Assembly: GCA_001563875.1 (NCBI GenBank)
Contig: LKMN01000010.1
Coordinates: 1 to 22,556 of the forward strand
Source of the DNA: Nanohaloarchaea archaeon B1-Br10_U2g1
GTDB taxonomy: Archaea; Nanohalarchaeota; Nanosalinia; Nanosalinales; Nanosalinaceae
Length of the DNA stretch: 22,556 nucleotides
Direction: 5' to 3'
Shown in pieces: positions 106 through 19,286 of the stretch. How positions within the stretch are numbered: position 1 is the stretch's first letter; every line of letters starts with the position of its first letter. A program made the translations under genes and the position numbers. The notes beneath the pieces are model-generated. The model was not told the origin of the DNA, searched no databases, and saw only the letters and a program-made list of their open reading frames with translations.

Positions 106-1311
106 ATGAGTCAGAGCAATCTGAAGTCGATGTTCACCGACTATATAGACGGTGACTCGTTCTTCAAAAATAAGGATGCACTTACAACCAACTGGAAACC
201 TGATAATATTCTACACAGAGATCAGCAGATCAATGATCTGGCAAGCATACTAGCACCAAGCCTAAGAGGGGATGATCCTAGCAACGTCTTCATCTACGGA
301 TCGGTAGGAACAGGAAAAACACTTATCACAAAACATGTCACAGAAGAACTTACAAGTGTTGCAAACTCGGAAGACGTAGATCTTAACATAGTATATATCA
401 ACTGTAAGATGAAGAAGGTGGCGGATACAGAGTACCGTTTACTCGCAAAGCTTGCCGAGCAGCTAGGAGATGATGTGCCTTCTACAGGCCTACCTACAGA
501 CGAGGTCTACAACCGTTTCTTTGAAGCCTTACAGGAACAGGAAGGTGTAGTAGTTATAGCGTTAGACGAGATAGATGCTCTGGTAAAGAAGGTAGGGGAC
601 GAGTTTCTTTACAACCTTACAAGGATCAACGACGATCTACAGAAGACAAAAGTAAGTATAATAGGGATATCAAATGATCTAAACTTCACAGAGTATATGG
701 ACTCTCGAGTGAAGTCATCACTTTCTGAAGAGGAGATTATATTCCCTCCTTACAACGCAATAGAGCTTAGAGAGATACTTAAGGATAGAGCTGAGAAAGG
801 TTTTGTCGAGGAAGCTTTGAAAGGAGGAGTAATCTCTAAATGTTCTGCTCTAGCAGCACAGGAACACGGTGATGCGAGAAGAGCCTTAGATCTTATACGT
901 GTGGCTGGAGAGCTAGCTGAAAGAAGCAGTTCGGAAGAGATCGCCAAAAAACATGTTGACAAAGCTCAAGAGAAAATTGAAAGAGATAGAATAGTAGAGA
1001 CGGTTAGAAGCCAGCCAAAACACTCCAAACTTGTCCTATACATAATACTCGATATGACAGATGACCAAGATGATATAGCTACCGGTGATGTATACTCTGA
1101 ATACAAAGGACTCTGTGAGGAAGTAGACGTTTCGAAGCTTACTCAGAGAAGAGTATCAGGACTTATATCAGAGCTAGATATGCTTGGAGTAATCAACGCA
1201 AAAGTCATATCCAAAGGACGTTACGGACGTACAAGACAGATAAGTGTTGACCTATCAGAAGATATCCGAGGCCAGATCAAGGAAATGGTTGAGGACAAGT
1301 TTTACATTTAG
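106..1311 (+). CDS. cdc6: Orc1/Cdc6 replication initiator (origin-associated type)
   Basis: Walker A GSVGTGKT, Walker B IALDEID, sensor GDARRALD, C-terminal winged helix TQRRVS...ELDMLG...SKGRYGRTR. Purine-rich RBS (GGAGGGGAGG) upstream. Confidence 0.97.
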   Translation: MSQSNLKSMFTDYIDGDSFFKNKDALTTNWKPDNILHRDQQINDLASILAPSLRGDDPSNVFIYGSVGTGKTLITKHVTEELTSVANSEDVDLNIVYINCKMKKVADTEYRLLAKLAEQLGDDVPSTGLPTDEVYNRFFEALQEQEGVVVIALDEIDALVKKVGDEFLYNLTRINDDLQKTKVSIIGISNDLNFTEYMDSRVKSSLSEEEIIFPPYNAIELREILKDRAEKGFVEEALKGGVISKCSALAAQEHGDARRALDLIRVAGELAERSSSEEIAKKHVDKAQEKIERDRIVETVRSQPKHSKLVLYIILDMTDDQDDIATGDVYSEYKGLCEEVDVSKLTQRRVSGLISELDMLGVINAKVISKGRYGRTRQISVDLSEDIRGQIKEMVEDKFYI

Positions 1312-1347
1312 AGTTTCAACTCTTGAGGGGAGTTGAGAGGGGAAAGA

Positions 1348-2925
1348 ATGAACAAACACGTAGTTAAACAGCTAACAAAAGAAGGATGTATTGTTGAAAA
1401 AGATGCGGCAGAAGCATTGACAGAAGAAGACATAGAGGCCATAAGATCTCTTGATACAACACCTATGTATATCACAGAGAGTATGTTAACGAATCTACGT
1501 GAAAAAGAGGTTGTTTCTAACGGAGGAACAGTAGTAAAACAGAAAACCGGTGAAAGATCCGGCCAGGACGGCTCCAACAGAGATCAAGAACCTGAATCCG
1601 GAAAGTTAAATAGCTCTGAGACAGAGAAGACTTCTGAAGAATATACTGAAAAAGATCAGAGTTCAGACGTTTCTACACCGGTAAAGATAATGGATGACAG
1701 AGACCGTAAGGAGATCAGGACAAAGGTCGAGATAGTTGACGATAAAGAGATCTCGATAACGGAGAAAGGTGTTCCCGAGTTCTTACAGTACTACAACGAC
1801 CGTTACGACGCGATGAAGAAGCTTCTTATGAACCGTATGGAGATGCAGTCCGCAACAACAATCAACAGGCTGGAAAGAAGAAACGAAGGTGACGAAGCTA
1901 CCACCATAGGCCTAGTAAATGATAAGTACTCAACAAACAGCGGTAAATGGATAGTTGAGATAGAGGATAATACGGAGAGCTTCAAGGTTCTAGTAGATGA
2001 AAGGGAAGGAGAGAGAATAGTTCCTGACGAGGTTATAGGCGTAATAGGAAGCATGGGAGGAGACATAATCTATGCGGACAGTATCGTAAGACCTGATATG
2101 CCTATACCAAGCGGTATCAAGACTACGGAAGACGATGTAGAGGCTGCATATATATCTGACCTCCATCTAGGATCCAAAGATACGTCCCATAAAGCGTTCG
2201 ACAGGTTTGCTAAATGGCTTAACTCCAAGGCAGCGGAGAAGGTAGGATATCTAGTGATACCTGGAGACGTCGTCGAAGGCGTAGGAACTTACCCGGGCCA
2301 AGAACATGATCTAGAGGTAACCGATATATACAAACAGTACAGGCTTTTCGAAGAATGGGTTGAGAGGATACCGGAACATATACAGATAGTTGTATCTCCA
2401 GGAAACCACGATATAACACGTCTAGCTGAGCCACAGCCATCTCTACCGGAGAAGGCTTTACCGACTATAAAGGACTACAACAATGTACATCTGGTTCAGA
2501 ACCCGCAGACGGTCAGGTTACACGGTATAGAAGGAAAGGGGATAGTCAATCTTCTTTACCACGGAACCTCTTTCGACGGCCATGTAGACCAGATAAAGGA
2601 TCTTAGGGAGAAGGCGTACGAGGAGCCGCACCATGTCATGATAGATCTGCTGAAGAGAAGACATCTAGCACCTACCTTCGGAACCAACTCCGTATCTCCC
2701 GAAGAGAAAGACCATCTTGTTATAAGAGAGGAGCCGGACGTCTTCGTCACAGGACATTTCCACAGCCATAGCAACGAAAACTACAAGGGAACAAACGTTA
2801 TCAACGCTTCAAGCTTCCAGAAACAGACCGACTTCCAGAGAAGGGTAGGCCACGAACCTGATCCTGGAAAGGTAACGGTTGTCAACTACAAAACCCGTAA
2901 TACCAGAGTCAAGAAGTTTATCTAG
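1348..2925 (+). CDS. polB: DNA polymerase D small (proofreading exonuclease) subunit DP1
   Basis: Calcineurin-like phosphoesterase motifs DLHLG, GDVVEG, PGNHD, YHG and GHFH, plus LKRRHLAP, an OB fold and a low-complexity linker. Lies between cdc6 and DP2. ATG 1348 (after GAGGGG) is preferred over TTG 1333. Confidence 0.95.
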   Translation: MNKHVVKQLTKEGCIVEKDAAEALTEEDIEAIRSLDTTPMYITESMLTNLREKEVVSNGGTVVKQKTGERSGQDGSNRDQEPESGKLNSSETEKTSEEYTEKDQSSDVSTPVKIMDDRDRKEIRTKVEIVDDKEISITEKGVPEFLQYYNDRYDAMKKLLMNRMEMQSATTINRLERRNEGDEATTIGLVNDKYSTNSGKWIVEIEDNTESFKVLVDEREGERIVPDEVIGVIGSMGGDIIYADSIVRPDMPIPSGIKTTEDDVEAAYISDLHLGSKDTSHKAFDRFAKWLNSKAAEKVGYLVIPGDVVEGVGTYPGQEHDLEVTDIYKQYRLFEEWVERIPEHIQIVVSPGNHDITRLAEPQPSLPEKALPTIKDYNNVHLVQNPQTVRLHGIEGKGIVNLLYHGTSFDGHVDQIKDLREKAYEEPHHVMIDLLKRRHLAPTFGTNSVSPEEKDHLVIREEPDVFVTGHFHSHSNENYKGTNVINASSFQKQTDFQRRVGHEPDPGKVTVVNYKTRNTRVKKFI

Positions 2926-2930
2926 AAAAA

Positions 2931-5900
2931 ATGAAGACCGACAAATACTTTGAAACAATAGAGAAAGAGACTGAGAAAGCATATGAAGTTGCGGAGAAAG
3001 CAAGAGCTCAGTCCAAAGATCCTGAGCAACGAGTAGATATACCTGTAGCAACAGATCTACCGGAGAAAGCTTCAAGCCTGGTTATTGCCGCCAAGTTTCC
3101 TGAGTTAGAGGATAAAGGCGTTCCGGAACGTATAAGAGAGCTGGAGAACGAGTACGGTAAGAACGATGAACGTGTAGCGTTCAAGATAGCTAGGGAGATA
3201 GCTGAAGAAAACTTTGTGGAGTTCAATGATAGAGAAAGAGCCTGCAATGCGGGAATAAGAGTGGGAGTAAGCTACATGACAGGAGGTATTACAACAGCTC
3301 CTTTAGAAGGTATTGGAGAGATAAAAGTAAGAGAGAACGACGACGGCACGAAATATCTGGCGGTATACTACTCAGGACCTATTAGAAGCGCCGGCGGAAC
3401 AGCATCCGCGATGAGCGTACTTCTGTCCGACTATGTAAGGATCGGTGTAGGACTTGACAGGTTCAAGCCTTCGGAGACAATAACTAAGAGATACTCTACA
3501 GAGGTAGAAGACTACTACAACCGTGTTACATCCAAACAGTACAATCCTACACGTGAAGAGACAGAGATGATTGCAGAGAATGTTCCGGTCGAAGTCACGG
3601 GGTCAGCGACCGAAAGCTTGGATGTATCGAACTACAAAGACCTGGAAAGGGTGGAAACCAACAGAATCAGAGGAGGAATGTGTCTAGTATATCTTGACGG
3701 CCTTCCTCTGAAAGCATCTAAGATAAAGAAACGTATAGAGAAATGGGGTAAGGAGTTCGGACTTGAACACTGGGAATGGATATCTGAATACCTGAATCTA
3801 CAGAAAAGTATTCACTCCTCGGACGACTCCGATGAAGATTCAGGAGATAAAAAGAAGAAATATACCGCGTCAGACAAGTTTCTAGGATCACTGACCGCAG
3901 GAAGACCTGTGCTAGCCCATCCTGGAAAAAAAGGCGGTTTCAGGCTTCGTTACGGGCATTCACGTACGAACGGTTTGGCAGCAGCATCTTTCCATCCCGC
4001 GACTATGGAGGTAACAGAAAGGTTCATGGCTATAGGAACACAGCTAAAGACAGAGTATCCTATGAAAGGAACGGTCGGAACCCCTTGTGACTCGATACAT
4101 CCTCCGGTTGTAAGGTTAGAGGATGGAGCGGTGGTCAAGCTGGAGTCCAGAGAACAAGCCAAGAAGCTGGAGCCCGAGATAGAGGAAATACTCTTTGTAG
4201 GGGATATGCTGGTTCCGTTCGGAGAGTTTATAGAGAACGGGAAAAAGCTGCTTCCATCACCTTACGTAAAGGAGTGGTGGGAAAAGGAACTGGAGAAGAC
4301 GCTTAAAGAAAAAAATGTAAAGCTAGGAAGAGACTTCTCAGAAAGAGATCCTTCTCCTGAAGAAGCTTTCAAGATATCAGAAAAGCTTGAGATCCCTCTA
4401 CATCCAAGATGGACTTACCACTGGAGAGAAACCGATGTTGAAGGATTTAAAGCGCTTCACAAAGCGTTAAGAGAAGATAAATTAGAGGGAAAACAGGTTA
4501 AAAATACTTTAGAGGATCTACTTGTACCGCATAAAGTTACTGAGAACGGTCTGAAACTATCCAAAAACGATTTTAAGGTTTTAAAAGAGCTTCTTAGGCC
4601 TGGAGAAGACAATAAAGAGCTTCTAGAATCTCTTGAGTCCTCTGAAGATATACCGGGTTTTATAGAAGAGGTTTCGGGAATAGAGGTACGGGAACAGGCG
4701 CCTCACTACCTCGGGTCAAGGATGGGTAGACCGGAAAAGGCAGAGAGAAGAACTATCAAAGGAAAGCCGCAGCTCCTCTTCCCCTGTGGCAAACAGGAAG
4801 GCGGCCGTATGAGAAACCTTTCAGCATCATACAAGAAAGAGACCGTAAACGAGTCGATAATCCATAACAAATGTCCTGAATGTGATGAATACAGCTACTT
4901 CTCATACTGCAAAGAATGCGGAACATCTACCGAGCCTGTATGGTTCTGTATGGACTGTGGCAAAGAACATAAGGAAGAGCCCAATAGCTGTGGCAAATGC
5001 GGAAATGACAGATTTAAACGGTACAAGAGGACTGATATAGATGTTAAGAAACTGGTAGATGACGCAAAGCAGAAATTAGGTATCAGAAATATGCCGGAGC
5101 TACTGAAATCTGTAAGAGGTATGAGCGGGAAAAACAAAAACGTCGAGCCGATAGAGAAAGGACTTCTAAGAGAGAAACACGATCTTTATGTCAACAAAGA
5201 TGGTACTGTGCGTTATGATGCAACAGATCTACCTATGACTCATTTCAAGCCTAGAGAGATAGATGTTTCCGTCGATAAGCTGAGAGAGCTCGGATACACT
5301 GAAGATATTGAAGGCAACAGTTTGGAGAACCAGGAACAGATCTTAGAGTTAAAGCCTCAAGACATCGTTATACCGGACGGAGAGAAATCACTTCCGGCCT
5401 CAGACTATATGATCAGAGTTACAAAGTTTATAGACGAACTACTAGAGAAGTTCTACGGACTGGAACCATACTACAATGTTGAGGAAAAAGAAGATCTTGT
5501 AGGCTCACTGGTAATCGGATTAGCACCTCACACATCAGGAGGTACTGTAGGCCGAATAATAGGTTTTACAGACGCTAAAGGGATCTATGCTCATCCATAC
5601 TGGCACGCAGGAAAAAGAAGAAATGCAGATGGAGACGAAGATGCAATACTTCTTCTTATGGACGGCTTACTAAACTTTTCACGCGATTTCCTTCCAGATA
5701 TGACAGGTGCAAGAACTATGGATGCGCCTTTAATCCTTTCAACAGTTCTAAATGCTGATGAGGTTGATGATGAGGCTTGGGCTACAGAAACAGTTAGTGA
5801 GTATCCTCTAAGCTTTTATGAGGAAACTTTGGATTATAAGAAGCCGTGGGAGTTAGAAACAGATATACAGATAGGAGAGGATATCGTACACAGCGACGAG

Positions 5901-6410
5901 CCTTACAACCACGGATTTACCCATGACTCCACATCTGTAGAGGATGGACCTACACAGAGTGAGTACGTAACGCTTGATGAGATGAGCGAGAAGACCTCAG
6001 CACAGCTAGGTATAGGAGAGAAGCTTAAAGCTGTTGACGAGGACAAGGTAGCCGAGCTTCTGCTTAGAAAACACTTCATACCTGATATAAAAGGTAATCT
6101 AAGAAGTTTCTCCAGTCAGAAGATGCGATGTGTCGACTGTAACGAGAAGTTCCGTAGAGTTCCTATGACGGATCAGACGATAGCTCCGACAGGTAAGACC
6201 ACAGCACAATGTCCGAGCTGCGGAGGCAAGGTTCTTTTGACAATCCATGAAGGCACCATAAAGAAGTATATGAATCCCAGTAAAGATATAATCGACCAGT
6301 ATGAGGTAGGACCTTATACACGTCAGCAGATACTTATCCTTAAGAAGATGATACAGAGTCTTTTCGGGAAGGACAACAGACAGTCAGGGCTTAAACAGTT
6401 TACAGCATAA
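2931..6410 (+). CDS. polC: DNA polymerase D large subunit DP2
   Basis: GPIRSAGGTA, GGFRLRYG, RMGRPEK, central CxxC zinc clusters, catalytic DGDED, C-terminal CVDC...CPSC zinc finger and PIP-like QSGLKQF terminus. No intein. Confidence 0.98.
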   Translation: MKTDKYFETIEKETEKAYEVAEKARAQSKDPEQRVDIPVATDLPEKASSLVIAAKFPELEDKGVPERIRELENEYGKNDERVAFKIAREIAEENFVEFNDRERACNAGIRVGVSYMTGGITTAPLEGIGEIKVRENDDGTKYLAVYYSGPIRSAGGTASAMSVLLSDYVRIGVGLDRFKPSETITKRYSTEVEDYYNRVTSKQYNPTREETEMIAENVPVEVTGSATESLDVSNYKDLERVETNRIRGGMCLVYLDGLPLKASKIKKRIEKWGKEFGLEHWEWISEYLNLQKSIHSSDDSDEDSGDKKKKYTASDKFLGSLTAGRPVLAHPGKKGGFRLRYGHSRTNGLAAASFHPATMEVTERFMAIGTQLKTEYPMKGTVGTPCDSIHPPVVRLEDGAVVKLESREQAKKLEPEIEEILFVGDMLVPFGEFIENGKKLLPSPYVKEWWEKELEKTLKEKNVKLGRDFSERDPSPEEAFKISEKLEIPLHPRWTYHWRETDVEGFKALHKALREDKLEGKQVKNTLEDLLVPHKVTENGLKLSKNDFKVLKELLRPGEDNKELLESLESSEDIPGFIEEVSGIEVREQAPHYLGSRMGRPEKAERRTIKGKPQLLFPCGKQEGGRMRNLSASYKKETVNESIIHNKCPECDEYSYFSYCKECGTSTEPVWFCMDCGKEHKEEPNSCGKCGNDRFKRYKRTDIDVKKLVDDAKQKLGIRNMPELLKSVRGMSGKNKNVEPIEKGLLREKHDLYVNKDGTVRYDATDLPMTHFKPREIDVSVDKLRELGYTEDIEGNSLENQEQILELKPQDIVIPDGEKSLPASDYMIRVTKFIDELLEKFYGLEPYYNVEEKEDLVGSLVIGLAPHTSGGTVGRIIGFTDAKGIYAHPYWHAGKRRNADGDEDAILLLMDGLLNFSRDFLPDMTGARTMDAPLILSTVLNADEVDDEAWATETVSEYPLSFYEETLDYKKPWELETDIQIGEDIVHSDEPYNHGFTHDSTSVEDGPTQSEYVTLDEMSEKTSAQLGIGEKLKAVDEDKVAELLLRKHFIPDIKGNLRSFSSQKMRCVDCNEKFRRVPMTDQTIAPTGKTTAQCPSCGGKVLLTIHEGTIKKYMNPSKDIIDQYEVGPYTRQQILILKKMIQSLFGKDNRQSGLKQFTA

Positions 6411-6513
6411 CCGCTGTATTTACTGGATTCCTGAGAAGGAATGAAATGAAAACTACGATTGTTCCACTTCTTAACCATAAGATTATTTAGGCTCGTAAAC
6501 CGGTTTTTAACTT

Positions 6514-7047
6514 ATGAGCAGAGAAGTTGAGATCAAGGAAGTCATGACTGATGGAGTAATAGCAATTGAAACCGACAAAACCGTTGTACAAGCAGCGAAA
6601 CTGTTGAGAGATGAAGGTATTCGAGGCTTAGTTGCGGTGGAAAACGGAGAAGCTATCGGAGTTATTGTATGTAGAGATATAGTCTATGAGGTAGTTGCAA
6701 AAGGCATGAACCCTCAAGAGACAAAGGTTGAAGATATAATGAGCACCGATCTTATCGTTGCAGAGGAAGACGAGGTTCTTGATGAGGTAGCTATGGCGAT
6801 GGTAAGAAACAACGTCTCCCGTATACCGGTTGTGAGACAGGATATGCTTGTAGGAATACTTACACAGTCAGATATTGTAAGAGCATGGCCTGGGTTTGCC
6901 GAGATTATAGGTGAAGAGGAAGAGATGGATGCTGAAGCCACACCGAGACAGACCAATAAAGAGGGAACCTGTGAAAGCTGTGAAAACTACTCTGAGAGCT
7001 TAGTAGACGCAGACGGACTTCTACTGTGTCCTGAATGTAGAGAGTGA
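6514..7047 (+). CDS. CBS-pair protein with C-terminal zinc ribbon
   Basis: Two CBS repeats (IKEVMT...GVIVCRDI and VEDIMS...GILTQSDI), followed by GTCESC...LCPEC. Confidence 0.9.
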   Translation: MSREVEIKEVMTDGVIAIETDKTVVQAAKLLRDEGIRGLVAVENGEAIGVIVCRDIVYEVVAKGMNPQETKVEDIMSTDLIVAEEDEVLDEVAMAMVRNNVSRIPVVRQDMLVGILTQSDIVRAWPGFAEIIGEEEEMDAEATPRQTNKEGTCESCENYSESLVDADGLLLCPECRE

Positions 7048-7102
7048 AAACACATATCCTCTCTTACATACCTTTTTTATCCTGTCAAAGAAACTTTCTA
7101 CC

Positions 7103-7543
7103 ATGGATATAACAGAGGAGGTAATTAGGAGAAGAGAGACCTTGCCGGCTAAAGGAGACTCTGTATATCCGGAGATAAGAGATCTTATAGAGAGAAGGAT
7201 GGACTTCGACCATGTATCAGAGGAAAAGTACTACCATGATACGGAGAACGGAACAGTCCGGTCAGAACTGAAGGCGGAACAAGGATTCGATGAGCATACA
7301 GAGGCAGAGTACGATATATTTATCGTTGTGTCTGCATCAGGAGAAGTAGATATACAGGTTAAGGGCAAGCTTGTGACCGAGTACGAGTTCTCAGGTAATA
7401 GAGAGCCTATATGGCACTATGCGTATAGAGCTCTGTACGAGAAATTTATCTACGGCACCGTAAGACAGGGCTACGTTCCGGCGGTAGAGGAGAAAACCGA
7501 TGAGCTACTTACACGTCTAAGACAGAATATGGAGGTTTCCTAA
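7103..7543 (+). CDS. Hypothetical protein (paralog A of a three-gene array)
   Basis: 146-aa acidic ORF. Its stop overlaps the next start (TAATG), and its residue pattern is shared with the next two ORFs. Confidence 0.85.
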   Translation: MDITEEVIRRRETLPAKGDSVYPEIRDLIERRMDFDHVSEEKYYHDTENGTVRSELKAEQGFDEHTEAEYDIFIVVSASGEVDIQVKGKLVTEYEFSGNREPIWHYAYRALYEKFIYGTVRQGYVPAVEEKTDELLTRLRQNMEVS

Positions 7544-8163
7544 TGGTGAAGTTTGAGGAGTCTTCGTTCTCGAAGTCAGATGTCTTCTTTGTCAAAGAAG
7601 ATCCTGCAAGAATCTACAGAGGGCTGAAGGATCTGCTAGTCGACGAGTTCGATATGGACAGGATTGAGGAAGGCCATATGGAGTTCAGCGTGAATAAACC
7701 TAAAGATAAGATAAGGCTGTGGGCATTCAAAGAGAAAAGCCCTCATACAGTACTACGTTTCAAACTAGGTTTCAGAGTCAAAAAACCTAAAGATATATAC
7801 AAAGTTCAGAGACCTGAAGATATACTAAAAGCGCAGGTAGCTGTTGATGCTAAGGTTATAACTGTCTACCCTGGAGGAGAACCGATCTCATGGGTTCCGG
7901 AGCCGTTGATGGAAGACAATACTTCCACATGGGGCAAGACAGGGCTTAAAGCAGAGGAACGAACACGGTTCCAGAAATCGAAGTTCTATGAGATACTTGT
8001 AGGGATATGGTACAACAAATTTTACTCAAAAGAGATAAGCCGTTACGAAGAGGAGGCAGAGGAGATATCTCTACATATACATAATCTAATGCGTGAAAAG
8101 TTTGGAGTACAAAAATCTATACACCGTTCAGGTTCATCACAGTACAAACCTCCATGGAGCTGA
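7543..8163 (+). CDS. Hypothetical protein (paralog B)
   Basis: 206-aa ORF, translationally coupled to the upstream gene, with the same helix / beta-meander / aromatic helix layout. Confidence 0.85.
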   Translation: MVKFEESSFSKSDVFFVKEDPARIYRGLKDLLVDEFDMDRIEEGHMEFSVNKPKDKIRLWAFKEKSPHTVLRFKLGFRVKKPKDIYKVQRPEDILKAQVAVDAKVITVYPGGEPISWVPEPLMEDNTSTWGKTGLKAEERTRFQKSKFYEILVGIWYNKFYSKEISRYEEEAEEISLHIHNLMREKFGVQKSIHRSGSSQYKPPWS

Positions 8164-8171
8164 GATAAGAG

Positions 8172-8834
8172 ATGTCATCAGACAAAGAAGGAAACTGGCT
8201 TACAAACAAGGTTAAGTACTGGCTGGACTTCCCGGATCCAAGCACCGACCACCACGACAATATATGGCACCATTTCCATATCTTTGACGGTCACTGGATA
8301 AGAGTACAGAACAGGAAAGAATGGTATGAAAGCCCTAACGTGCCAGGGATATACAAAGACCATAAGTATATCTTTAAAGAAAACGTAGGGATAGGAAGGC
8401 CCGAGGAAACCTTTTACGCGCAGAACGTTGACAACGGAGATTTCAAATCAGTGATGGAGGCCTCAGAAGGTCTTCCAAGCGGTAGAGGAGACCTGAAAAT
8501 AACGACAACCATCAACACGAAGAGCCCTCCTTCAGGAGAGAACGACTTCGCCCTAGTTGAGTATGTCGTTGATACAGAGATAAAGTATGATTTACACAAG
8601 GGAATAACATTTCTTCCACGTATACTTGCAAGACCGTTAAACAGGTTCTTCAAATGGGCGTTCTTCAATATTCTAGGAGAAGAGATGGTGGACCGAGACG
8701 GAGAGTACGCAAGAGAAAGAACAACAGAGTACTTCCAGTATGTAAGAAAGTACCATGGTGAAGAGCCCACCCAGACACGGACTAGACAGGCCGAGTTCAA
8801 ACCGGTTCCTGAAGACGGAATATTCTTCCAGTAA
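8172..8834 (+). CDS. Hypothetical protein (paralog C, His/Trp-rich N-terminal extension)
   Basis: 220-aa ORF starting 8 nt after paralog B. Core aligns by eye with A and B. Confidence 0.85.
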   Translation: MSSDKEGNWLTNKVKYWLDFPDPSTDHHDNIWHHFHIFDGHWIRVQNRKEWYESPNVPGIYKDHKYIFKENVGIGRPEETFYAQNVDNGDFKSVMEASEGLPSGRGDLKITTTINTKSPPSGENDFALVEYVVDTEIKYDLHKGITFLPRILARPLNRFFKWAFFNILGEEMVDRDGEYARERTTEYFQYVRKYHGEEPTQTRTRQAEFKPVPEDGIFFQ

Positions 8835-8901
8835 ACGGTCGGTACAGTAAGACAGTTAAGGCTTGGGAAAGAAGTCATCATTGCGGGACTACTAAATTAT
8901 A

Positions 8902-8977
8902 TTGGCTGTCCTGCGTCAGCAAATGTGACCCTAAAAGGGACAGGGGATGATCATCTGTGTTACAGGACAGCCAAATA
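8902..8977 (+). ncRNA. Putative single-hairpin archaeal H/ACA guide sRNA (predicted target: 23S rRNA helix 69, U1915 in E. coli numbering)
   Basis: 12-bp lower stem TTGGCTGTCCTG/CAGGACAGCCAA, internal pocket (GUCA / GUUAC), upper stem GCAAAUG/CAUCUGU, K-turn GUGA...GAUGAUC and an ANA box (AAA/AUA at 8973-8977) 14-16 nt from the top of the pocket. Transcript ends are unknown. Confidence 0.75.
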
Positions 8978-8980
8978 CTA

Positions 8981-9232
8981 ATGACCCAGATATACGTCAA
9001 AGTAGAGCCAGACTCCAGGAAGTTCAGTATAGAAGAAGACGTCATTCCCAAGATAAAGCTGGAAGAAAGCCCTGAGAACGGAAGAGCGAACAGAGAACTT
9101 CTGAAAAGGCTGCAAAAAATTCTTGGAGCAAAACCTGGTATAATATCCGGACACAAGTCCCGCAGGAAAAAACTGGAAATACCTTTAGACGAAGACGAAA
9201 TAAGACAAAAAATGAGGGAATACGATGGGTAA
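8981..9232 (+). CDS. DUF167 (YggU/UPF0235) family protein
   Basis: IYVKVEPDS...ESPENGRANRELL...IISGHKSRRK matches the family pattern. ATG 8981 is preferred because GTG 8957 lies inside the RNA hairpin. Confidence 0.88.
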   Translation: MTQIYVKVEPDSRKFSIEEDVIPKIKLEESPENGRANRELLKRLQKILGAKPGIISGHKSRRKKLEIPLDEDEIRQKMREYDG

Positions 9233-10355
9233 AGTCGCGCAAAGCTCCGTAAAATATGTTATACAAGCAAAACTTGAGTCAGGAGGAGTTGTAGAAAAAC
9301 CTGATATAGTTGGAGCGGTATTTGGACAGACAGAAGGGCTTCTAGGAGAGGAACTGGACTTAAGAGAGCTTCAAGAACGTGGAAGAATAGGAAGGATAGA
9401 GGTTGATGTAAAAAAGAAAAACGGTAAATCACAAGCCTCTATAGAGATACCTACCTCACTAGATGCCACAGAAACTTGTTTACTAGCTGCTTCACTTGAA
9501 ACAATCGAAAGAGTCGGACCTACAACAGCAGAGATAAGTGTAGAAGAAGTTAAAGACCAGAGAACATCGAAAAGAGACTACATAGTTAAGAGAGCAAAAC
9601 AGCTGCTTGAAGATATTGAGACCGACAAACCAGAACATAGACAGATAACGAAAGAGATACGTGAAAAAGCCAGGAAATCAGAGCTAACAAATTACAGAGG
9701 CTTTAATGCAGGACCTGCCGCAGAAGACTCTGAAGAAGTTATAGTGGTAGAAGGCAGAGCTGATATAGTAAACCTATTGAAACACGGTGTTAAGAACACT
9801 ATAGCTCTGGGAGGCACATCAATACCTGACAAAGTATTTGAACTGGTACAGGATAAACAGATAACTTTATTCCTTGACGGTGATCGGGGAGGAGATCTTA
9901 TTCTAAAAGAGTTTACGGATAAACAGAAACCGGACTACGTAGCCAGAGCACCTAAAGATAAAGAGGTAGAAGACATAACTAAAGAACAGATCCATAAAGC
10001 TTTGAGAGACAAAGAGCCTGCAGACTACGTAAAGACAACTGAAGAAGATAAAAGACCTGAAGAGATTGAAGAACTAAACGAGAAACTTAACAATCTTGTA
10101 GGTACTAGAGCGGTCTACGTTCTTGATAAAAATCTTGAAACAGTAGATAGATTTCCTCTAAAGAAGTTTGAAGAAAATGTTAGAGACTTGGAGTCATGTT
10201 ACGCTGTCTTATTGGATGGAGAAGTTGATGGCGATAAGATTGATCTTTTAGAAGACATTACGGAGTATGTCTTAGGGATGAAGAAAACAGGCTACGTTAA
10301 CTCCAGCGAGACAGTAATTATGACGAGAGAAGAGTTAAAACCGCTGACAACTTAA
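9225..10355 (+). CDS. dnaG: Archaeal DnaG (TOPRIM; exosome-associated primase-like protein)
   Basis: N-terminal GVVEKPDIVGAVFGQTEGLLG...LRELQ...GRIGRI and TOPRIM motifs VVEGRAD and DGDRGG. Overlaps the end of DUF167. Confidence 0.96.
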   Translation: MGKVAQSSVKYVIQAKLESGGVVEKPDIVGAVFGQTEGLLGEELDLRELQERGRIGRIEVDVKKKNGKSQASIEIPTSLDATETCLLAASLETIERVGPTTAEISVEEVKDQRTSKRDYIVKRAKQLLEDIETDKPEHRQITKEIREKARKSELTNYRGFNAGPAAEDSEEVIVVEGRADIVNLLKHGVKNTIALGGTSIPDKVFELVQDKQITLFLDGDRGGDLILKEFTDKQKPDYVARAPKDKEVEDITKEQIHKALRDKEPADYVKTTEEDKRPEEIEELNEKLNNLVGTRAVYVLDKNLETVDRFPLKKFEENVRDLESCYAVLLDGEVDGDKIDLLEDITEYVLGMKKTGYVNSSETVIMTREELKPLTT

Positions 10356-10359
10356 AGAG

Positions 10360-10998
10360 TTATTCCCAGGGATTCTCAGGGTCCGGGTTGTGTCGAGCCT
10401 GCTCTGCATAAAACTGGAGGTCGAACTCTTTGAAGTCGTTATCGACGTTCTGAACGGTTTCAGGTATCTGCCACTGCACACTTATGTAGTGCTCCTCTGT
10501 GGGTTGGAAGGGCTGTTCTTCTTCTGTGGTCAGGTTTCCGTCAAGTAGGTATCCGTCTCCAAGCTCGTTTTCTACATCTGCTAGTGATCCTTGGTAGATC
10601 ATTTCGTCGTCTGAGTTGAATACTCCATCTCCTTGATCGTCATAGAAGATATCTACTTCTACGTTTTGAGCTAGGTCTCCGTCTTCATCGGTTTGGTCAA
10701 ATAGTATCCATTTCCAGGCGTTGTTTCCTGATACAACTGTACTAATAGTGGTCACGCCTGAATCGCCGGGTTTAATGTCTTGAAAGTTGAATATTGTTTC
10801 TGGCTCGCCTGAAGGATCTTGTTGGTCTATAACCTCGTCGTTATATTCTGTAGAAAACCCTATCTCTAGAGTTACGCTACCTGCCTGGAAGGTGTTGTCC
10901 TCTATGACAACTGAGTCGTTTAGATAGGCGGCTGTGGCCGTACCTGTTATAACACCTATTATTCCGAGTAGTAACAGCGAGCTGAACGTTTTTTTCAT
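10360..10998 (-). CDS. SipW-dependent signal peptide protein, TasA/camelysin-like
   Basis: MKK + hydrophobic stretch + GTATAAYLND...NTFQAGSVTL is a SipW-cognate signal pattern. Also IKPGDSG and a C-terminal FYAEQARHN. Confidence 0.8.
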   Translation of the reverse strand: MKKTFSSLLLLGIIGVITGTATAAYLNDSVVIEDNTFQAGSVTLEIGFSTEYNDEVIDQQDPSGEPETIFNFQDIKPGDSGVTTISTVVSGNNAWKWILFDQTDEDGDLAQNVEVDIFYDDQGDGVFNSDDEMIYQGSLADVENELGDGYLLDGNLTTEEEQPFQPTEEHYISVQWQIPETVQNVDNDFKEFDLQFYAEQARHNPDPENPWE

Positions 10999-11539: not shown

Positions 11540-11614
11540 AGCCCCGTCCGGGATTTGAACCCGGGACCTGCTCCTTACGAGGGAGCCGCTCTAGCCAGGC
11601 TGAGCCAACGAGGC
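11540..11614 (-). tRNA. tRNA-Thr (anticodon CGT), intronless, CCA not encoded
   Basis: Minus strand reads GCCTCGTTGGCTCAGCCTGGCTAGAGCGGCTCCCTCGTAAGGAGCAGGTCCCGGGTTCAAATCCCGGACGGGGC-T. Full cloverleaf, anticodon loop CTCGTAA, TTCAAAT T-loop, U discriminator followed by a T-run. Confidence 0.97.
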
Positions 11615-15778: not shown

Positions 15779-16120
15779 TTACTGCTCTAAGCTTTCTGCT
15801 ATAATCTGTAGATCACCTTCATAGATATCTACATATCCTTGTACAGTGACTTCTCTGTCTGTATCTATCCAGGTCTCTGAATCGAACTCCACAACATTTA
15901 TCTCTCCTGTACCATCCGATATATCGAGAAAAAGATGTCCTGAACCGGTATTAAAGTTAACTACCTCGCCGGTAAGCTTGATATGTTCGCCTGTCATCGA
16001 CTCGTCTAACTCCTCGACTTCGTGCTCCGCAGGAGAAACCATGGGCTCGGTGAAAAACATTATAGATAGGCCTATCAAAGACAGCGTTACTGATATCCGG
16101 TATACGGTTTTCTTCCTCAT
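15779..16120 (-). CDS. Membrane-anchored single OB-fold protein
   Basis: N-terminal hydrophobic helix, then IKLTGEV...HLFLDISDGTGEINVVEF...VTVQGYVDIYEGDLQIIA (tRNA-anticodon-type OB fold). Confidence 0.8.
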   Translation of the reverse strand: MRKKTVYRISVTLSLIGLSIMFFTEPMVSPAEHEVEELDESMTGEHIKLTGEVVNFNTGSGHLFLDISDGTGEINVVEFDSETWIDTDREVTVQGYVDIYEGDLQIIAESLEQ

Positions 16121-16641
16121 AGAGACTTTGTGTACACCTTCCTGTACTCTTTGTTCTTGCTTTGGAAAAGGTTCACGTTATCTACTTCTAGTTCGCCAAA
16201 ATAATGGTTTTCGTAGTCTCTAAGCATTCTCTGAACCTTTCTCTTCTCAGAGCTCCGGATGTCGGAGATCCGTAGAAGCGTTATATGAGGTTTGAAAGGG
16301 TGGCTGTTATCTGAAGATACTTTGTGGCTACATACCTGTTTGTACAGACGTGTAAACTTATCGTCTTCTACCCCTGCCCATACGACACGTATATACTCTT
16401 GAGAGGGAAAGGCACCGACATCTTCAACCCGTACCTTAAAACTAGAGATGTTGATGTTGTCCAAGGCCTCTATAACCTGTTCGGTCTCTGTCTTATCTAG
16501 GTTCTGGAAGAACTGGAATGTGATATGCATCTTCTCACGTGGAACCGGTTTGAAACCGAGATCAAAGGAGCCCCTTACTTCTTTCAGCTTATGTAGAAGA
16601 TCAGGTTCCTGAATATCTACTGCAGAGAACAGACTCGCCAT
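16117..16641 (-). CDS. thpR: RNA 2',3'-cyclic phosphodiesterase (2H family)
   Basis: Two HxT motifs (MHITFQF, FKPHITL), plus GAFP and RVVWAG. The start MASLFSAVD at 16641 fits the family N-terminus; the ORF-track extension to 16722 overlaps the divergent gene. Confidence 0.92.
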   Translation of the reverse strand: MASLFSAVDIQEPDLLHKLKEVRGSFDLGFKPVPREKMHITFQFFQNLDKTETEQVIEALDNINISSFKVRVEDVGAFPSQEYIRVVWAGVEDDKFTRLYKQVCSHKVSSDNSHPFKPHITLLRISDIRSSEKRKVQRMLRDYENHYFGELEVDNVNLFQSKNKEYRKVYTKSL

Positions 16642-16695
16642 ACAACTTTTTAACTTTCCTACTCTCAAATAACTATTATAGGTGCCAAAATAATA

Positions 16696-16956
16696 ATGTC
16701 GGACAGACCACGTGGAACACAATTACTAGGTAAGACGATAGTATCTGAAGAGCACGGTAAAAAATACGGGGAAGTAGAAGATGTATCCTTTGTATCAGAT
16801 ACCGGAGAGCTAATGAACCTTCTGATAAACAATACAACAGAGCATATCGATGACGTACAGCTACAGGAAGATAGAAAAGGACGTAACATTGTACCTTTCT
16901 CCGCAGTAAGAAGCATCGGAGACTTCGTAATAGTTAGTGAAGACGATATAATCTAG
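16696..16956 (+). CDS. PRC-barrel domain protein (CdpB-like)
   Basis: LLGKTIVSEEHGKKYGEVEDV...TGEL...VPFSAVRSIGDFVIV. Confidence 0.9.
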   Translation: MSDRPRGTQLLGKTIVSEEHGKKYGEVEDVSFVSDTGELMNLLINNTTEHIDDVQLQEDRKGRNIVPFSAVRSIGDFVIVSEDDII

Positions 16957-17314: not shown

Positions 17315-18271
17315 TTAGGTGTCTTCAATTCCCTTATCGCTTATCTCGAAGACTGCTTCGCCTTCAGGTAGATACGGGCTGTCTTCTAGTCTTGCAACCC
17401 TTGTATCCTTCTTCCCTTTTCTGAGGTAGATTATTATCGCGCAGTTGTGTGCTACGATGTTTCCTCCTATAGCTTTCGTCGGATCTCCAAACATCTGGTC
17501 CGGATTGTCCATGACCTGGTTGGTGACCACTACCGCTACGTTGTGTGTATTGGCTACCTTGAGAAGTGTTGACATATGTTTGTTGAGCTTTTGCTGTCTT
17601 TTAGCTAGCTCTCCTCTTCCTACGTACTCGCTTCGGAAGTGCGCCATCAGTGAGTCGACTACTATTAGTCCGATATCGTTTTCGTTACAGATCTGTCTAG
17701 CTTCTTCCGCCAGAAGCATCTGGTGGTCGGAGTTGAATGCTCTTGCTACAAAGATGTTGTCTAGTACTTGTTCAGGATCCATGTCCTGGCTTTCCGCCAT
17801 CTGTTCGACTCTTTCTGGTGTAAAAGTGTCTTCTGTGTCTATGTAGATAGCTCCTTTGCCCATGCCTCCTTCTTCAGGACTTTTTTGAACGTTTACTGAT
17901 AGGTGGTGCGCTATCTGTGTTTTTCCTGCTGAGAACTCTCCGTATAGTTCTGTAATGGCTTGTGTTTCGATTCCGCCGTCTAGGAGTTCGTTGAAGTCTT
18001 CGCTCGCTGTAGCTATCTTCTCCATCTTTTCCCGTTGCTTCATCTTTTCTGTTCCTGTTTCGAATCCTCCTACGTCTGCAAGATCTTTTGCAGAGTGAAC
18101 TATGCTTTCTGCAGCGCTTTCTCCGATTCCGTCTACTTGACCGGCTAGTTCTCCAGCCTTCATGTTCGCTATCTCCATCAAGTTAGTTAGACCTTCTTCT
18201 TTCAGTCTTTCCGCTGTTTTTCCGCCTACGCCGTCCAAGTCTTCGAGTTCTACCTCTTTTTGTTCTGTCAT
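17315..18271 (-). CDS. radA: DNA repair and recombination protein RadA
   Basis: N-terminal HhH domain, Walker A GEFSAGKT, YIDTEDTF, VVDSL, FRSEYVGRGELAKRQQ, TNQV and DSPYLPEGEA. No intein. Confidence 0.98.
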   Translation of the reverse strand: MTEQKEVELEDLDGVGGKTAERLKEEGLTNLMEIANMKAGELAGQVDGIGESAAESIVHSAKDLADVGGFETGTEKMKQREKMEKIATASEDFNELLDGGIETQAITELYGEFSAGKTQIAHHLSVNVQKSPEEGGMGKGAIYIDTEDTFTPERVEQMAESQDMDPEQVLDNIFVARAFNSDHQMLLAEEARQICNENDIGLIVVDSLMAHFRSEYVGRGELAKRQQKLNKHMSTLLKVANTHNVAVVVTNQVMDNPDQMFGDPTKAIGGNIVAHNCAIIIYLRKGKKDTRVARLEDSPYLPEGEAVFEISDKGIEDT

Positions 18272-18290
18272 AGTATTTTTTAACCTCTCC

Positions 18291-19286
18291 TTATGCTTCC
18301 ATTATTTCAAGTAGTTCTTTGATTTCTTCTTCGGTCGATACTTGTTCGAAGCTGTTTGCAAGCATCTCAATTCTTCCGAAGTAGTCGTTGTAACGTGTAC
18401 GTCCTTGTATAAGTATTTCTTTTCCTATTACTTCTTCTGCTGCGTCTTCTACAGCTTTTTTGTCTCCTTCTTTTTCTTCTTCCTCTGTGATTTCCAGTAA
18501 ATCTCGTGCTTGGTCTCCGAACAGTACTACTCTTATGTTTCCGGTTCCGTCGTCCACAACGCATGATATTGCAAGTCTGTAGTCAGGATCCTCTACTTCG
18601 TCTCCATCATCGGTTACGTAGTCTCCGTCGTCGTTCTCCCTTACCGTGTCTCCTGAGTCAGGGTCTACCATGTAGAATGGATTACTGGTGTAGACATCTA
18701 CGAGCATACCGGTTACTTCGAATGATGAGCCCTCTGTTCTTACCTCGCCTATGTTGGCGCTGGTGGTTGTCGTGTCTCGGGTCTCTATCTCTGGTACCTC
18801 GTCTTCGTCCGCCATCTTTACCTGTACGTCGTCTCCAAGTCTCAGTTCGGCGTTTTCTCTGTTGTCTTCAACAGTGTATGCTCCGGCTATATGTATTGCG
18901 TCGCCTTCTTGTACTTTCTCTGCTATCTTGGTCTGTTCGTCCCAGAGCGTTAGTCTTATTGTTCCGGTATCGTCTCCGAGCACCACGTTCTGTACTTTTC
19001 CTTCGTCTCCATCATCTCTCTCGAAAGTATTGGGGTCTGTAATATTCACTACTCGGGCCTTTATGGACACCTTACGCATCTCTGGAACGATGTTCTCTAC
19101 CTTGAGTTCTTGTTTTGAGGCTTCTGCTATGTCGACGCCGTGTTCTTTTGCGACGAGGTGTGCTGCACCTTCTTCGGATACGAGTCCGGAGAATTCTTCC
19201 ATCTTTTCGTCTATCTTTTCCTGTATGTCGTCTTCATCTAGGTCTGCTTCCTCGACTATTTTTTCGATTATTTCGTCGGTGTCCAT
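18291..19286 (-). CDS. rpa: Replication protein A (single-stranded DNA-binding; N-terminal helical domain plus two OB folds)
   Basis: GLVSEEGAAHLVA, DDTGTIRLTLW and DDGTGNIRVVLF. Directly upstream of radA, with an RBS (GGAGAGG) between them. Confidence 0.92.
   Translation of the reverse strand: MDTDEIIEKIVEEADLDEDDIQEKIDEKMEEFSGLVSEEGAAHLVAKEHGVDIAEASKQELKVENIVPEMRKVSIKARVVNITDPNTFERDDGDEGKVQNVVLGDDTGTIRLTLWDEQTKIAEKVQEGDAIHIAGAYTVEDNRENAELRLGDDVQVKMADEDEVPEIETRDTTTTSANIGEVRTEGSSFEVTGMLVDVYTSNPFYMVDPDSGDTVRENDDGDYVTDDGDEVEDPDYRLAISCVVDDGTGNIRVVLFGDQARDLLEITEEEEKEGDKKAVEDAAEEVIGKEILIQGRTRYNDYFGRIEMLANSFEQVSTEEEIKELLEIMEA

Follow-up and report, generated by a model that had tools for sequence, protein, structure and literature searches.

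Three adjacent paralogs of an undescribed archaeal family, a candidate heteromeric complex encoded between PolD and DnaG in Nanohaloarchaeota

Contig LKMN01000010.1 of the tiny symbiotic halophile Nanohaloarchaea archaeon B1-Br10_U2g1, a stretch of 22,556 nucleotides (nt) analyzed here as a whole (the window), carries three consecutive open reading frames (ORFs) between the genes for PolD and DnaG, which we call genes A, B and C. Do these genes descend from one ancestor, and do their products work as one complex? A preliminary description of the sequence had proposed that they are coupled, deeply diverged paralogs of an unknown fold, kept from an old triplication and forming a core DPANN hetero-oligomer. 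The genomes of Nanohaloarchaeota and Aenigmatarchaeota, the two phyla considered below, measure 0.6–1.3 Mb, and nearly every gene kept in them should matter, yet the family of A, B and C is nameless and has neither a Pfam model nor a solved relative.

BLASTP among the three proteins gave no significant match (E 0.078 to 28), and hhalign with profiles built from close relatives alone was merely suggestive (A-B 56 %, A-C 19 %, B-C 0.8 %). Homologs numbered 49 for A, 179 for B and 152 for C, all of them hypothetical and labelled Nanohaloarchaea wherever named. In four diverged genomes the A profile also matched the adjoining genes (E 2.6e-6 to 3.2e-4), the B profile too cross-matched neighbouring genes in diverged genomes, and all 13 loci taken from the phylum's four diverged families carried the triplet. 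Widened profiles, made from the close relatives together with 12 diverged-lineage loci, were then run as hidden Markov models (HMMs) against all 3315 six-frame ORF segments (at least 60 amino acids, aa) of the source genome. They recovered the sister genes only: A found B (E 1.3e-13), B found A (1.7e-6), and C found both B (1.9e-8) and A (1.9e-5); the best unrelated ORF lay at 0.18–0.8, and no fourth paralog was found in the source genome by the same search. With these profiles hhalign gave 99.3 % for A-B (E 4e-20, 150 columns), 97.3 % for B-C (E 2.8e-11, 159 columns) and 96.7 % for A-C (E 4e-10, 139 columns). Profile comparison thus establishes A, B and C as true ancient paralogs, as had been proposed. 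The four blocks aligned by eye in the preliminary description (first helix, strands, late strand and aromatic helix) are in register with the profile alignments, and its ORF positions, the TAATG overlap of the A stop with the B start (7541–7545) and the 8-nt spacing between B and C (8164–8171) could all be read in the sequence.

The profile survey of the phylum found A in 62, B in 61 and C in 62 of 70 genomes, and each of the three in 28/28 high-quality genomes (at least 90 % complete); all three are missing in seven incomplete metagenome-assembled genomes (MAGs). The coordinate tables place A beside B in each of the 61 genomes that have both, and C next after B in 60 of them, the exception being a contig end. 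The order A-B-C is fixed across the surveyed Nanohaloarchaeota, and all three clades occur in every sampled lineage, which bears out both the age proposed for the triplication and the core status of the genes in this phylum.

Outside Nanohaloarchaeota, an A profile drawn from all lineages was compared with a library of 1.84 billion representatives at E<=1e-3. It matched 120 proteins, nanohaloarchaeal A proteins first and then about 100 stand-alone proteins of 150–190 aa. All credible matches are stand-alone (44–222 aa), with no fused form among the 120, and the few that have names are called "hypothetical protein, Candidatus Aenigmarchaeota"; two long repeat proteins in this set look spurious. 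Members of the family were found in 119 of 121 sampled Aenigmatarchaeota genomes, mostly with two matches each. These form a same-strand tandem pair, a few nt apart, in all 24 loci examined, and one clade of the phylum has a single copy per genome (3/3 genomes). A, B, C, the Aenigmatarchaeota pair and the single-copy forms are joined into one undescribed DPANN family by mutual full-domain profile matches and by positions conserved across all clades, namely Tyr and Leu (Y..L) in helix 1, Glu at strand 2, a D-x-x-T turn, T-x-Y-P after the last strand, and Tyr and Arg (Y...R) in the aromatic helix.

This family could not be assigned to a characterised one, in line with the preliminary description: A, B and C matched no Pfam and no NCBIfam family at E<=1, Pfam scans of 38 and then 45 relatives gave nothing above cut-off, and against PDB sequences two of the three family profiles matched nothing and the third had one chance match (E 1.2). 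No publication on the family came up among the listings and abstract openings of full-text literature searches. As far as HMMER sees, the family appears confined to DPANN-type archaea, namely Nanohaloarchaeota and Aenigmatarchaeota. A language-model search for look-alikes returned large nameless clusters from Aenigmatarchaeota and, merely as a lead, from Woesearchaeota. The label "core DPANN" is thus borne out for Nanohaloarchaeota and Aenigmatarchaeota, whereas for Woesearchaeota it would rest on such look-alikes.

A quick maximum-likelihood tree was built from 97 sequences, sampling 14 of 24 pairs and, for each family, 10 of 20 Nanosalinaceae-type rows; some of its long branches were flagged. 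It contained three separate clans, comprising all Aenigmatarchaeota copies, nanohaloarchaeal A, and nanohaloarchaeal B+C, with Shimodaira-Hasegawa-like approximate likelihood ratio (SH-aLRT) values of 97, 90 and 89, respectively. The Aenigmatarchaeota pair and the nanohaloarchaeal triplet therefore arose independently. By the tree, the triplication, which first separated A from B+C and then B from C, took place before the sampled Nanohaloarchaeota diversified. A tandem pair and a tandem triplet that evolved independently from one gene would be a clean natural example of the transition from homo-oligomer to hetero-oligomer.

AlphaFold2 (AF2) models were made from the family alignments for A (predicted local distance difference test, pLDDT, 80.1; predicted template modelling score, pTM, 0.72) and for C (pLDDT 82.1, pTM 0.71). 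The elements (E, strand; H, helix) are E2-15 H21-32 E37-46 E51-61 E66-76 E81-93 H103-116 H124-145 in A and H7-18 E39-54 H60-72 E78-84 E91-100 E106-116 E126-140 H150-194 in C. The order strand, helix, four strands, helix is common to both; A ends in two helices and C in one long helix, and in C a further helix precedes the first strand and a disordered tail (200-220) closes the chain. The fold of B is taken to be the same because of its 99.3 % profile match to A. Each protein is thus predicted to consist of one alpha+beta domain in the TBP-like/KA1/helix-grip class with the arrangement beta-alpha-beta4-alpha, extended in A by a C-terminal helix.

Foldseek searches of the PDB with the A and C models returned Bet v 1/PR-10, START/CERT, Ups1-PRELI, PYL, CoxG and ARO/CYC proteins only, with template modelling (TM) scores of 0.15–0.43; A had 45 matches at E<=1e-3 (best 1.1e-4), and the best match of C was at 5.7e-4. 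The Bet v 1-like helix-grip is a beta-alpha-alpha-beta6-alpha fold whose seven-stranded sheet grips the C-terminal helix. The A and C models differ from this superfamily (Ups1-PRELI, Lam/StART-like, PR-10, PYR/PYL, CoxG and ARO/CYC proteins among others) in having five strands and not seven, one helix after strand 1 and not two, and TM-scores of at most 0.43. Superpositions of the Bet v 1 type score about equal to those of the KA1 type and have merely partial coverage; the beta-alpha-beta4-alpha fold of KA1 (kinase-associated-1) domains, which is also that of the KA1-like C-terminal domain of the AMPK/SNF1 alpha subunit, superposes on the models over the whole domain. KA1 domains sit at the C-terminus of kinases, methyltransferases or other RNA-modifying enzymes, whereas A, B and C are stand-alone tandem paralogs with an extra C-terminal helix and tails, with no kinase linked and no sequence relation (no Pfam KA1 match). 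KA1 domains also bind acidic phospholipids or RNA by way of a basic surface; of the three proteins, B alone is basic in composition. TBP-like proteins of unknown function (DUF4468 BACOVA_04320; BDI_3606) are bacterial and share with A, B and C neither sequence nor tandem-paralog organisation. The heterodimerising C-terminal domains of the paralog pairs IntS9/IntS11 and CPSF73/CPSF100 gave weaker, shorter matches (73–89 residues) and belong to large nucleases.

The helix-grip or TBP-like sheet proposed earlier agrees with the AF2 models of A and C and with the structure searches, whereas the fold can no longer be called unknown, since these models match a common, known class. A, B and C are a new undescribed family inside a known fold class. 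The aromatic helix, for which membrane binding had been considered, falls within the ranges that superpose on the KA1 and Bet v 1 domains; on the models, this suggests that it more likely belongs to the fold itself, packed against the sheet, than that it stands free to bind a membrane.

The three proteins are rich in phenylalanine, tryptophan and tyrosine (11–15 % against a proteome median of 7.8 %), and B is basic in an acidic proteome (median isoelectric point, pI, 4.72), the median over 20 Nanosalinaceae-type B proteins being 8.8. No transmembrane segment or signal peptide was found in A, B or C (maximum 19-aa hydropathy 0.65–0.95; a secreted control protein encoded in the window reaches 1.97). 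There is no cluster of Cys, His, Ser or Asp among the positions conserved family-wide; the invariant positions are sparse and structural-looking. Both results accord with the lack of a signal peptide and of a catalytic motif noticed earlier. In the family alignments, B has about 40 extra residues inserted behind its last strand, and C has an N-terminal extension of about 38 aa, which is missing from diverged lineages. The C-terminal tails shared by B and C (Table 1) are basic-aromatic. An identity as PIP-box or HbYX motifs was rejected, as the spacing is mismatched and the ...FFQ end occurs only in Nanosalinaceae-type C proteins.

T/A-rich boxes precede the ATG codons of A and of the CBS gene upstream of it (see below) by about 26–28 nt (Table 1). 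Together with the usual geometry of archaeal promoters, their positions suggest separate leaderless transcripts for the CBS gene and for A-B-C. Scans for sigma-70 promoters and intrinsic terminators, two models inapplicable to archaea, gave no excess over shuffles. An antisense ORF of 155 aa lies wholly within gene C as an ORF and is probably a chance frame, because gene C on the forward strand has 152 homologs.

The gene directly upstream of A encodes a CBS-pair protein with a C-terminal zinc ribbon. It holds this place in 16 of 19 nanohaloarchaeal loci and, about 10 nt off, in all eight loci of the single-copy Aenigmatarchaeota clade, where the CBS-pair/zinc-ribbon protein (176 aa) is a full-length ortholog of the window protein (end-to-end, E 2e-30). 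In AMPK cores, KA1-like domains scaffold the CBS subunit. Any likeness of A-B-C to an AMPK/SNF1-type core would lie in the adjacency of a CBS-pair gene and in the KA1-like fold, known here from genes and models only; neither the genes of the window nor the related loci scanned contain a kinase domain, which sets the locus apart from such a core. In diverged nanohaloarchaeal families (loci L007, L010 and L017) the CBS protein has 140–148 aa and no cysteine zinc ribbon of the kind found in the window, in locus L015 and in Aenigmatarchaeota. A 1987-nt contig (L027) of a MAG labelled Planctomycetota carries an archaeal CBS-Zn-ribbon gene followed by a family gene and is most likely a mis-binned archaeal contig.

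What, then, do the three proteins do? We favor the reading, to which we give about an even chance, that A-B-C is a hetero-oligomeric, non-catalytic adaptor or binding complex, probably acting with the CBS-Zn-ribbon protein. Strict co-occurrence, fixed order, translational coupling and the second independent origin of adjacent paralogs argue for an obligate hetero-oligomer derived from a homo-oligomer, and the non-catalytic role is suggested by invariant positions that are few and form no catalytic-looking cluster. The ancestral single-copy protein would have acted as a homo-oligomer, and hetero-oligomers would have arisen twice, as the pair of most Aenigmatarchaeota and as the A-B-C triplet of Nanohaloarchaeota, the latter from a single transcript, probably leaderless, with coupled translation of its genes. 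A would retain the ancestral core, B would supply a basic surface amid the acidic proteome, and the flexible conserved tails of B and C could dock on a partner or an anionic surface. The likeliest protein partner would be the CBS-pair/zinc-ribbon protein; we propose that with this partner the assembly may respond to adenine nucleotides and resemble the AMPK core in architecture, not in ancestry.

Several observations weigh against this adaptor complex and its CBS partner. None of the 24 pair-bearing Aenigmatarchaeota loci has the CBS-Zn-ribbon gene as its upstream neighbour; only weak CBS matches, on the opposite strand, occur in ten of them, and other genes are the conserved neighbours there. 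The CBS gene is also missing upstream in three of the 19 nanohaloarchaeal loci, its product has no zinc ribbon in some diverged lineages, and CBS domains are common, so that part of the adjacency could be chance. Neither a kinase nor another output domain is linked. B is not basic everywhere, the median pI over 12 diverged loci being 6.6. Finally, we infer assembly from gene organisation only, and the structure models cover A and C; a complex prediction for A+B+C (ipSAE 0.01 and 0.03, mark 0.32, no control runs) has no weight either way.

The paralogs might instead have sub-functionalised into separate monomers that merely share an operon, which would fit their strong differences in charge, length and extensions (Table 1) and the fact that evidence of assembly was not obtained. 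We consider this improbable in view of the strict co-occurrence and fixed order across the phylum, the translational coupling and the independent origin of tightly adjacent paralogs in a second phylum, features that obligate heteromers typically show, none of which proves assembly by itself. Another reading takes the proteins, alone or as a heteromer, for trimmed Bet v 1/StARkin-like helix-grip modules that bind or shuttle lipids or other hydrophobic ligands. It is made attractive by the fact that DPANN symbionts are held to be without lipid synthesis and dependent on host lipids, and the limitation of the family to DPANN-type phyla, the exclusively Bet v 1/START-type top Foldseek matches of A and C, the high aromatic content, a basic B that would suit acidic membranes, and a small ORF with a hydrophobic or amphipathic N-terminus after the Aenigmatarchaeota pair all speak for it. 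The TM-scores are low, however, and the models, five-stranded with one helix between strands 1 and 2, are not the cavity-forming seven-stranded grip; no SRPBCC profile of Pfam (Polyketide_cyc2, AHSA1, START, Bet_v_1 and COXG among them) matched the three proteins or 45 relatives. Compared by hhalign with a single AHSA1 protein, a weak test, the A profile gave 0.3 %, though a more remote relation to the superfamily may exist. Export signals are lacking too, the proteins being cytoplasmic. Lipid binding of this kind is thus rather unlikely. Quite unlikely is a more specific version, in which the A-B-C heteromer, or its pair and single-copy relatives, would be a DPANN-specific membrane-directed lipid-handling module, trimmed StARkin/KA1-like, whose basic B and aromatic core would bind acidic lipids derived from the host, with the CBS adenylate sensor as its gate; if true, such a module would belong to the long-sought pathway through which lipid-auxotrophic nano-archaea take up or distribute the membrane lipids of their hosts.

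The surroundings of the triplet could also point to nucleic acids, with a TBP-like/KA1-like heteromer working with origin-proximal replication or RNA machinery; KA1-type domains of METTL16 and TUT1 bind RNA, and B is basic. The A-B-C region is an origin-proximal replication island with the order Cdc6/Orc1, PolD DP1, PolD DP2, CBS-Zn-ribbon, A, B, C, DUF167 and DnaG, followed further on by RadA and RPA. In four complete relatives the triplet lies 7–10 kb from the record start, which makes it probable that the origin of replication lies shortly before the window. Over 19 nanohaloarchaeal loci, many with flanks too short to tell, PolD DP2 precedes the CBS gene in 13, DUF167 follows C in nine and DnaG in seven; the location between PolD and DnaG, claimed from the window alone, is thus borne out by gene annotation and by the other loci where the flank reaches. 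Genes for Cdc6, Hjc and RPA also lie no more than 4 kb away in the single-copy Aenigmatarchaeota locus. Against a role in replication or on RNA, none of the 12 wider pair-bearing Aenigmatarchaeota loci has an adjacent replication gene, and therefore the replication context is not conserved with the family. The RNA role that the preliminary description had drawn from these neighbours loses its basis, as they are specific to Nanohaloarchaeota and differ in the pair-bearing Aenigmatarchaeota. In addition, A and C are acidic, small genomes put many genes near the origin by chance, and no obvious missing replisome part is left for the triplet to replace. The replacement of GINS was considered and rejected: a weak Sld5-like match (C9, E 0.0019, below cut-off) lies elsewhere in the genome, and there is therefore no sign of it. 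Taken together, we hold a nucleic-acid role to be hardly probable.

For the favored adaptor complex, A, B, C and the CBS partner would be a compact and tractable target (three proteins of 146–220 aa and one partner) whose study could uncover a lineage-specific core function in DPANN symbionts; a membrane- or lipid-directed or CBS-coupled role, if true, would bear on how these symbionts get lipids or sense their energy state. New here are the full-domain matches of the KA1/AMPK C-terminal domain type, the independent Aenigmatarchaeota duplication, the linkage to the CBS-Zn-ribbon gene across phyla, and the neighbourhood of two genes called big1 and big2.

These two genes, large and with no Pfam match, lie divergently upstream of the Aenigmatarchaeota pair in all 12 wider loci. 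A nucleotidyltransferase gene of the NTP_transf_2/Pol-beta type follows big2 in several of the loci scanned, and an Obg-like GTPase is encoded near the pair in ten of 12. Adjacent homologs of big1 and big2 (E 3e-21 and 1e-30) also occur in the source genome on another contig, with a nucleotidyltransferase gene behind them and a divergent 163-aa ORF; the latter was rejected as a family member (hhalign 0.2 % and 0.5 %). With about 540–580 aa for big1 and about 600–860 aa for big2, they form a conserved adjacent pair in both phyla and are another undescribed DPANN gene set. There was no PDB sequence match for either, and a weak match to AP_endonuc_2 (xylose-isomerase-like TIM barrel) was seen in two of 12 big2 members only. 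After the Aenigmatarchaeota pair, nine of 12 loci have a small ORF whose product starts with a hydrophobic segment, continues as a disordered linker and forms a coiled coil. Small ORFs of 92–163 aa, beside big1 in the source genome and after the Aenigmatarchaeota pair, share this architecture of an N-terminal hydrophobic or amphipathic segment (some M-x-x-F-D-x-L-K-like), linker and coiled coil, a likeness in architecture only. An AHSA1/SRPBCC gene stands beside the family pair in one of 12 Aenigmatarchaeota loci, which looks coincidental.

Table 1. Positions of the genes, sequence elements and neighbouring features discussed in the text (window coordinates unless a contig or locus is given).
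Feature	Position	Strand	Evidence and remarks
Cdc6/Orc1, PolD DP1 and DP2, in a row	106-6410
T/A-rich box ATTATTTA	6482-6489	+	Similar to the box of A; ahead of the CBS gene
CBS-pair protein gene	6514-7047	+	177 aa; C-terminal CxxC...CxxC zinc ribbon; Pfam CBS E 1.5e-23; weak DUF7573/Zn-ribbon matches
T/A-rich TATA-like box TTTTTTAT	7073-7080	+	Centre about 26 nt 5' of the A ATG; candidate promoter of a leaderless A-B-C transcript
Gene A	7103-7543	+	ORF, 146 aa; acidic, pI 4.7; shortest of the three paralogs, nearest to the outgroup
GGAGG, Shine-Dalgarno-like	7531-7535	+	Within the 3' end of gene A, 8 nt 5' of the B ATG; putative function
Gene B	7543-8163	+	ORF, 206 aa; basic, pI 9.0
C-terminal tail of B	8104-8160	+	Conserved; G-x-x-P/K-x-[IV]-G/H-[KR]-[ST]-x-x-x-x-[YF]-x-P type, common to B and C and not in A (alignments)
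Gene C	8172-8834	+	ORF, 220 aa; acidic, pI 5.6; 15 % aromatic residues
C-terminal tail of C	8757-8831	+	Conserved, yet disordered in the monomer model (pLDDT 39-43, residues 200-220)
Antisense ORF	8414-8881	-	155 aa
DUF167/YggU-family gene	8957-9232	+	Pfam DUF167 E 1.8e-12; 3' of C
Archaeal DnaG (Toprim)	9225-10355	+	NCBIfam NF003108 E 5e-122
Very acidic protein	10360-10998	-	212 aa; no Pfam match
tRNA-Thr (CGU)	11540-11614	-	ARAGORN and Rfam
LigT-like 2',5' RNA ligase family gene	16117-16722	-
RadA (Rad51 family) and RPA-like OB-fold protein, adjacent	17315-19286	-
big1/big2 pair in the source genome	C16:42753-46969 (= L068:6751-10970)	-	Homology to Aenigmatarchaeota big1/big2
163-aa ORF divergent from big1	L068:11046-11537	+	Rejected as a family member
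AHSA1/SRPBCC protein gene	L063:5236-5658	+	Beside a family pair

Among the remaining features of the window, the tRNA-Thr gene is the sole RNA gene found by ARAGORN and Rfam. The 212-aa protein encoded next to DnaG on the opposite strand has a clear N-terminal signal-like hydrophobic segment and is a candidate secreted or surface protein.

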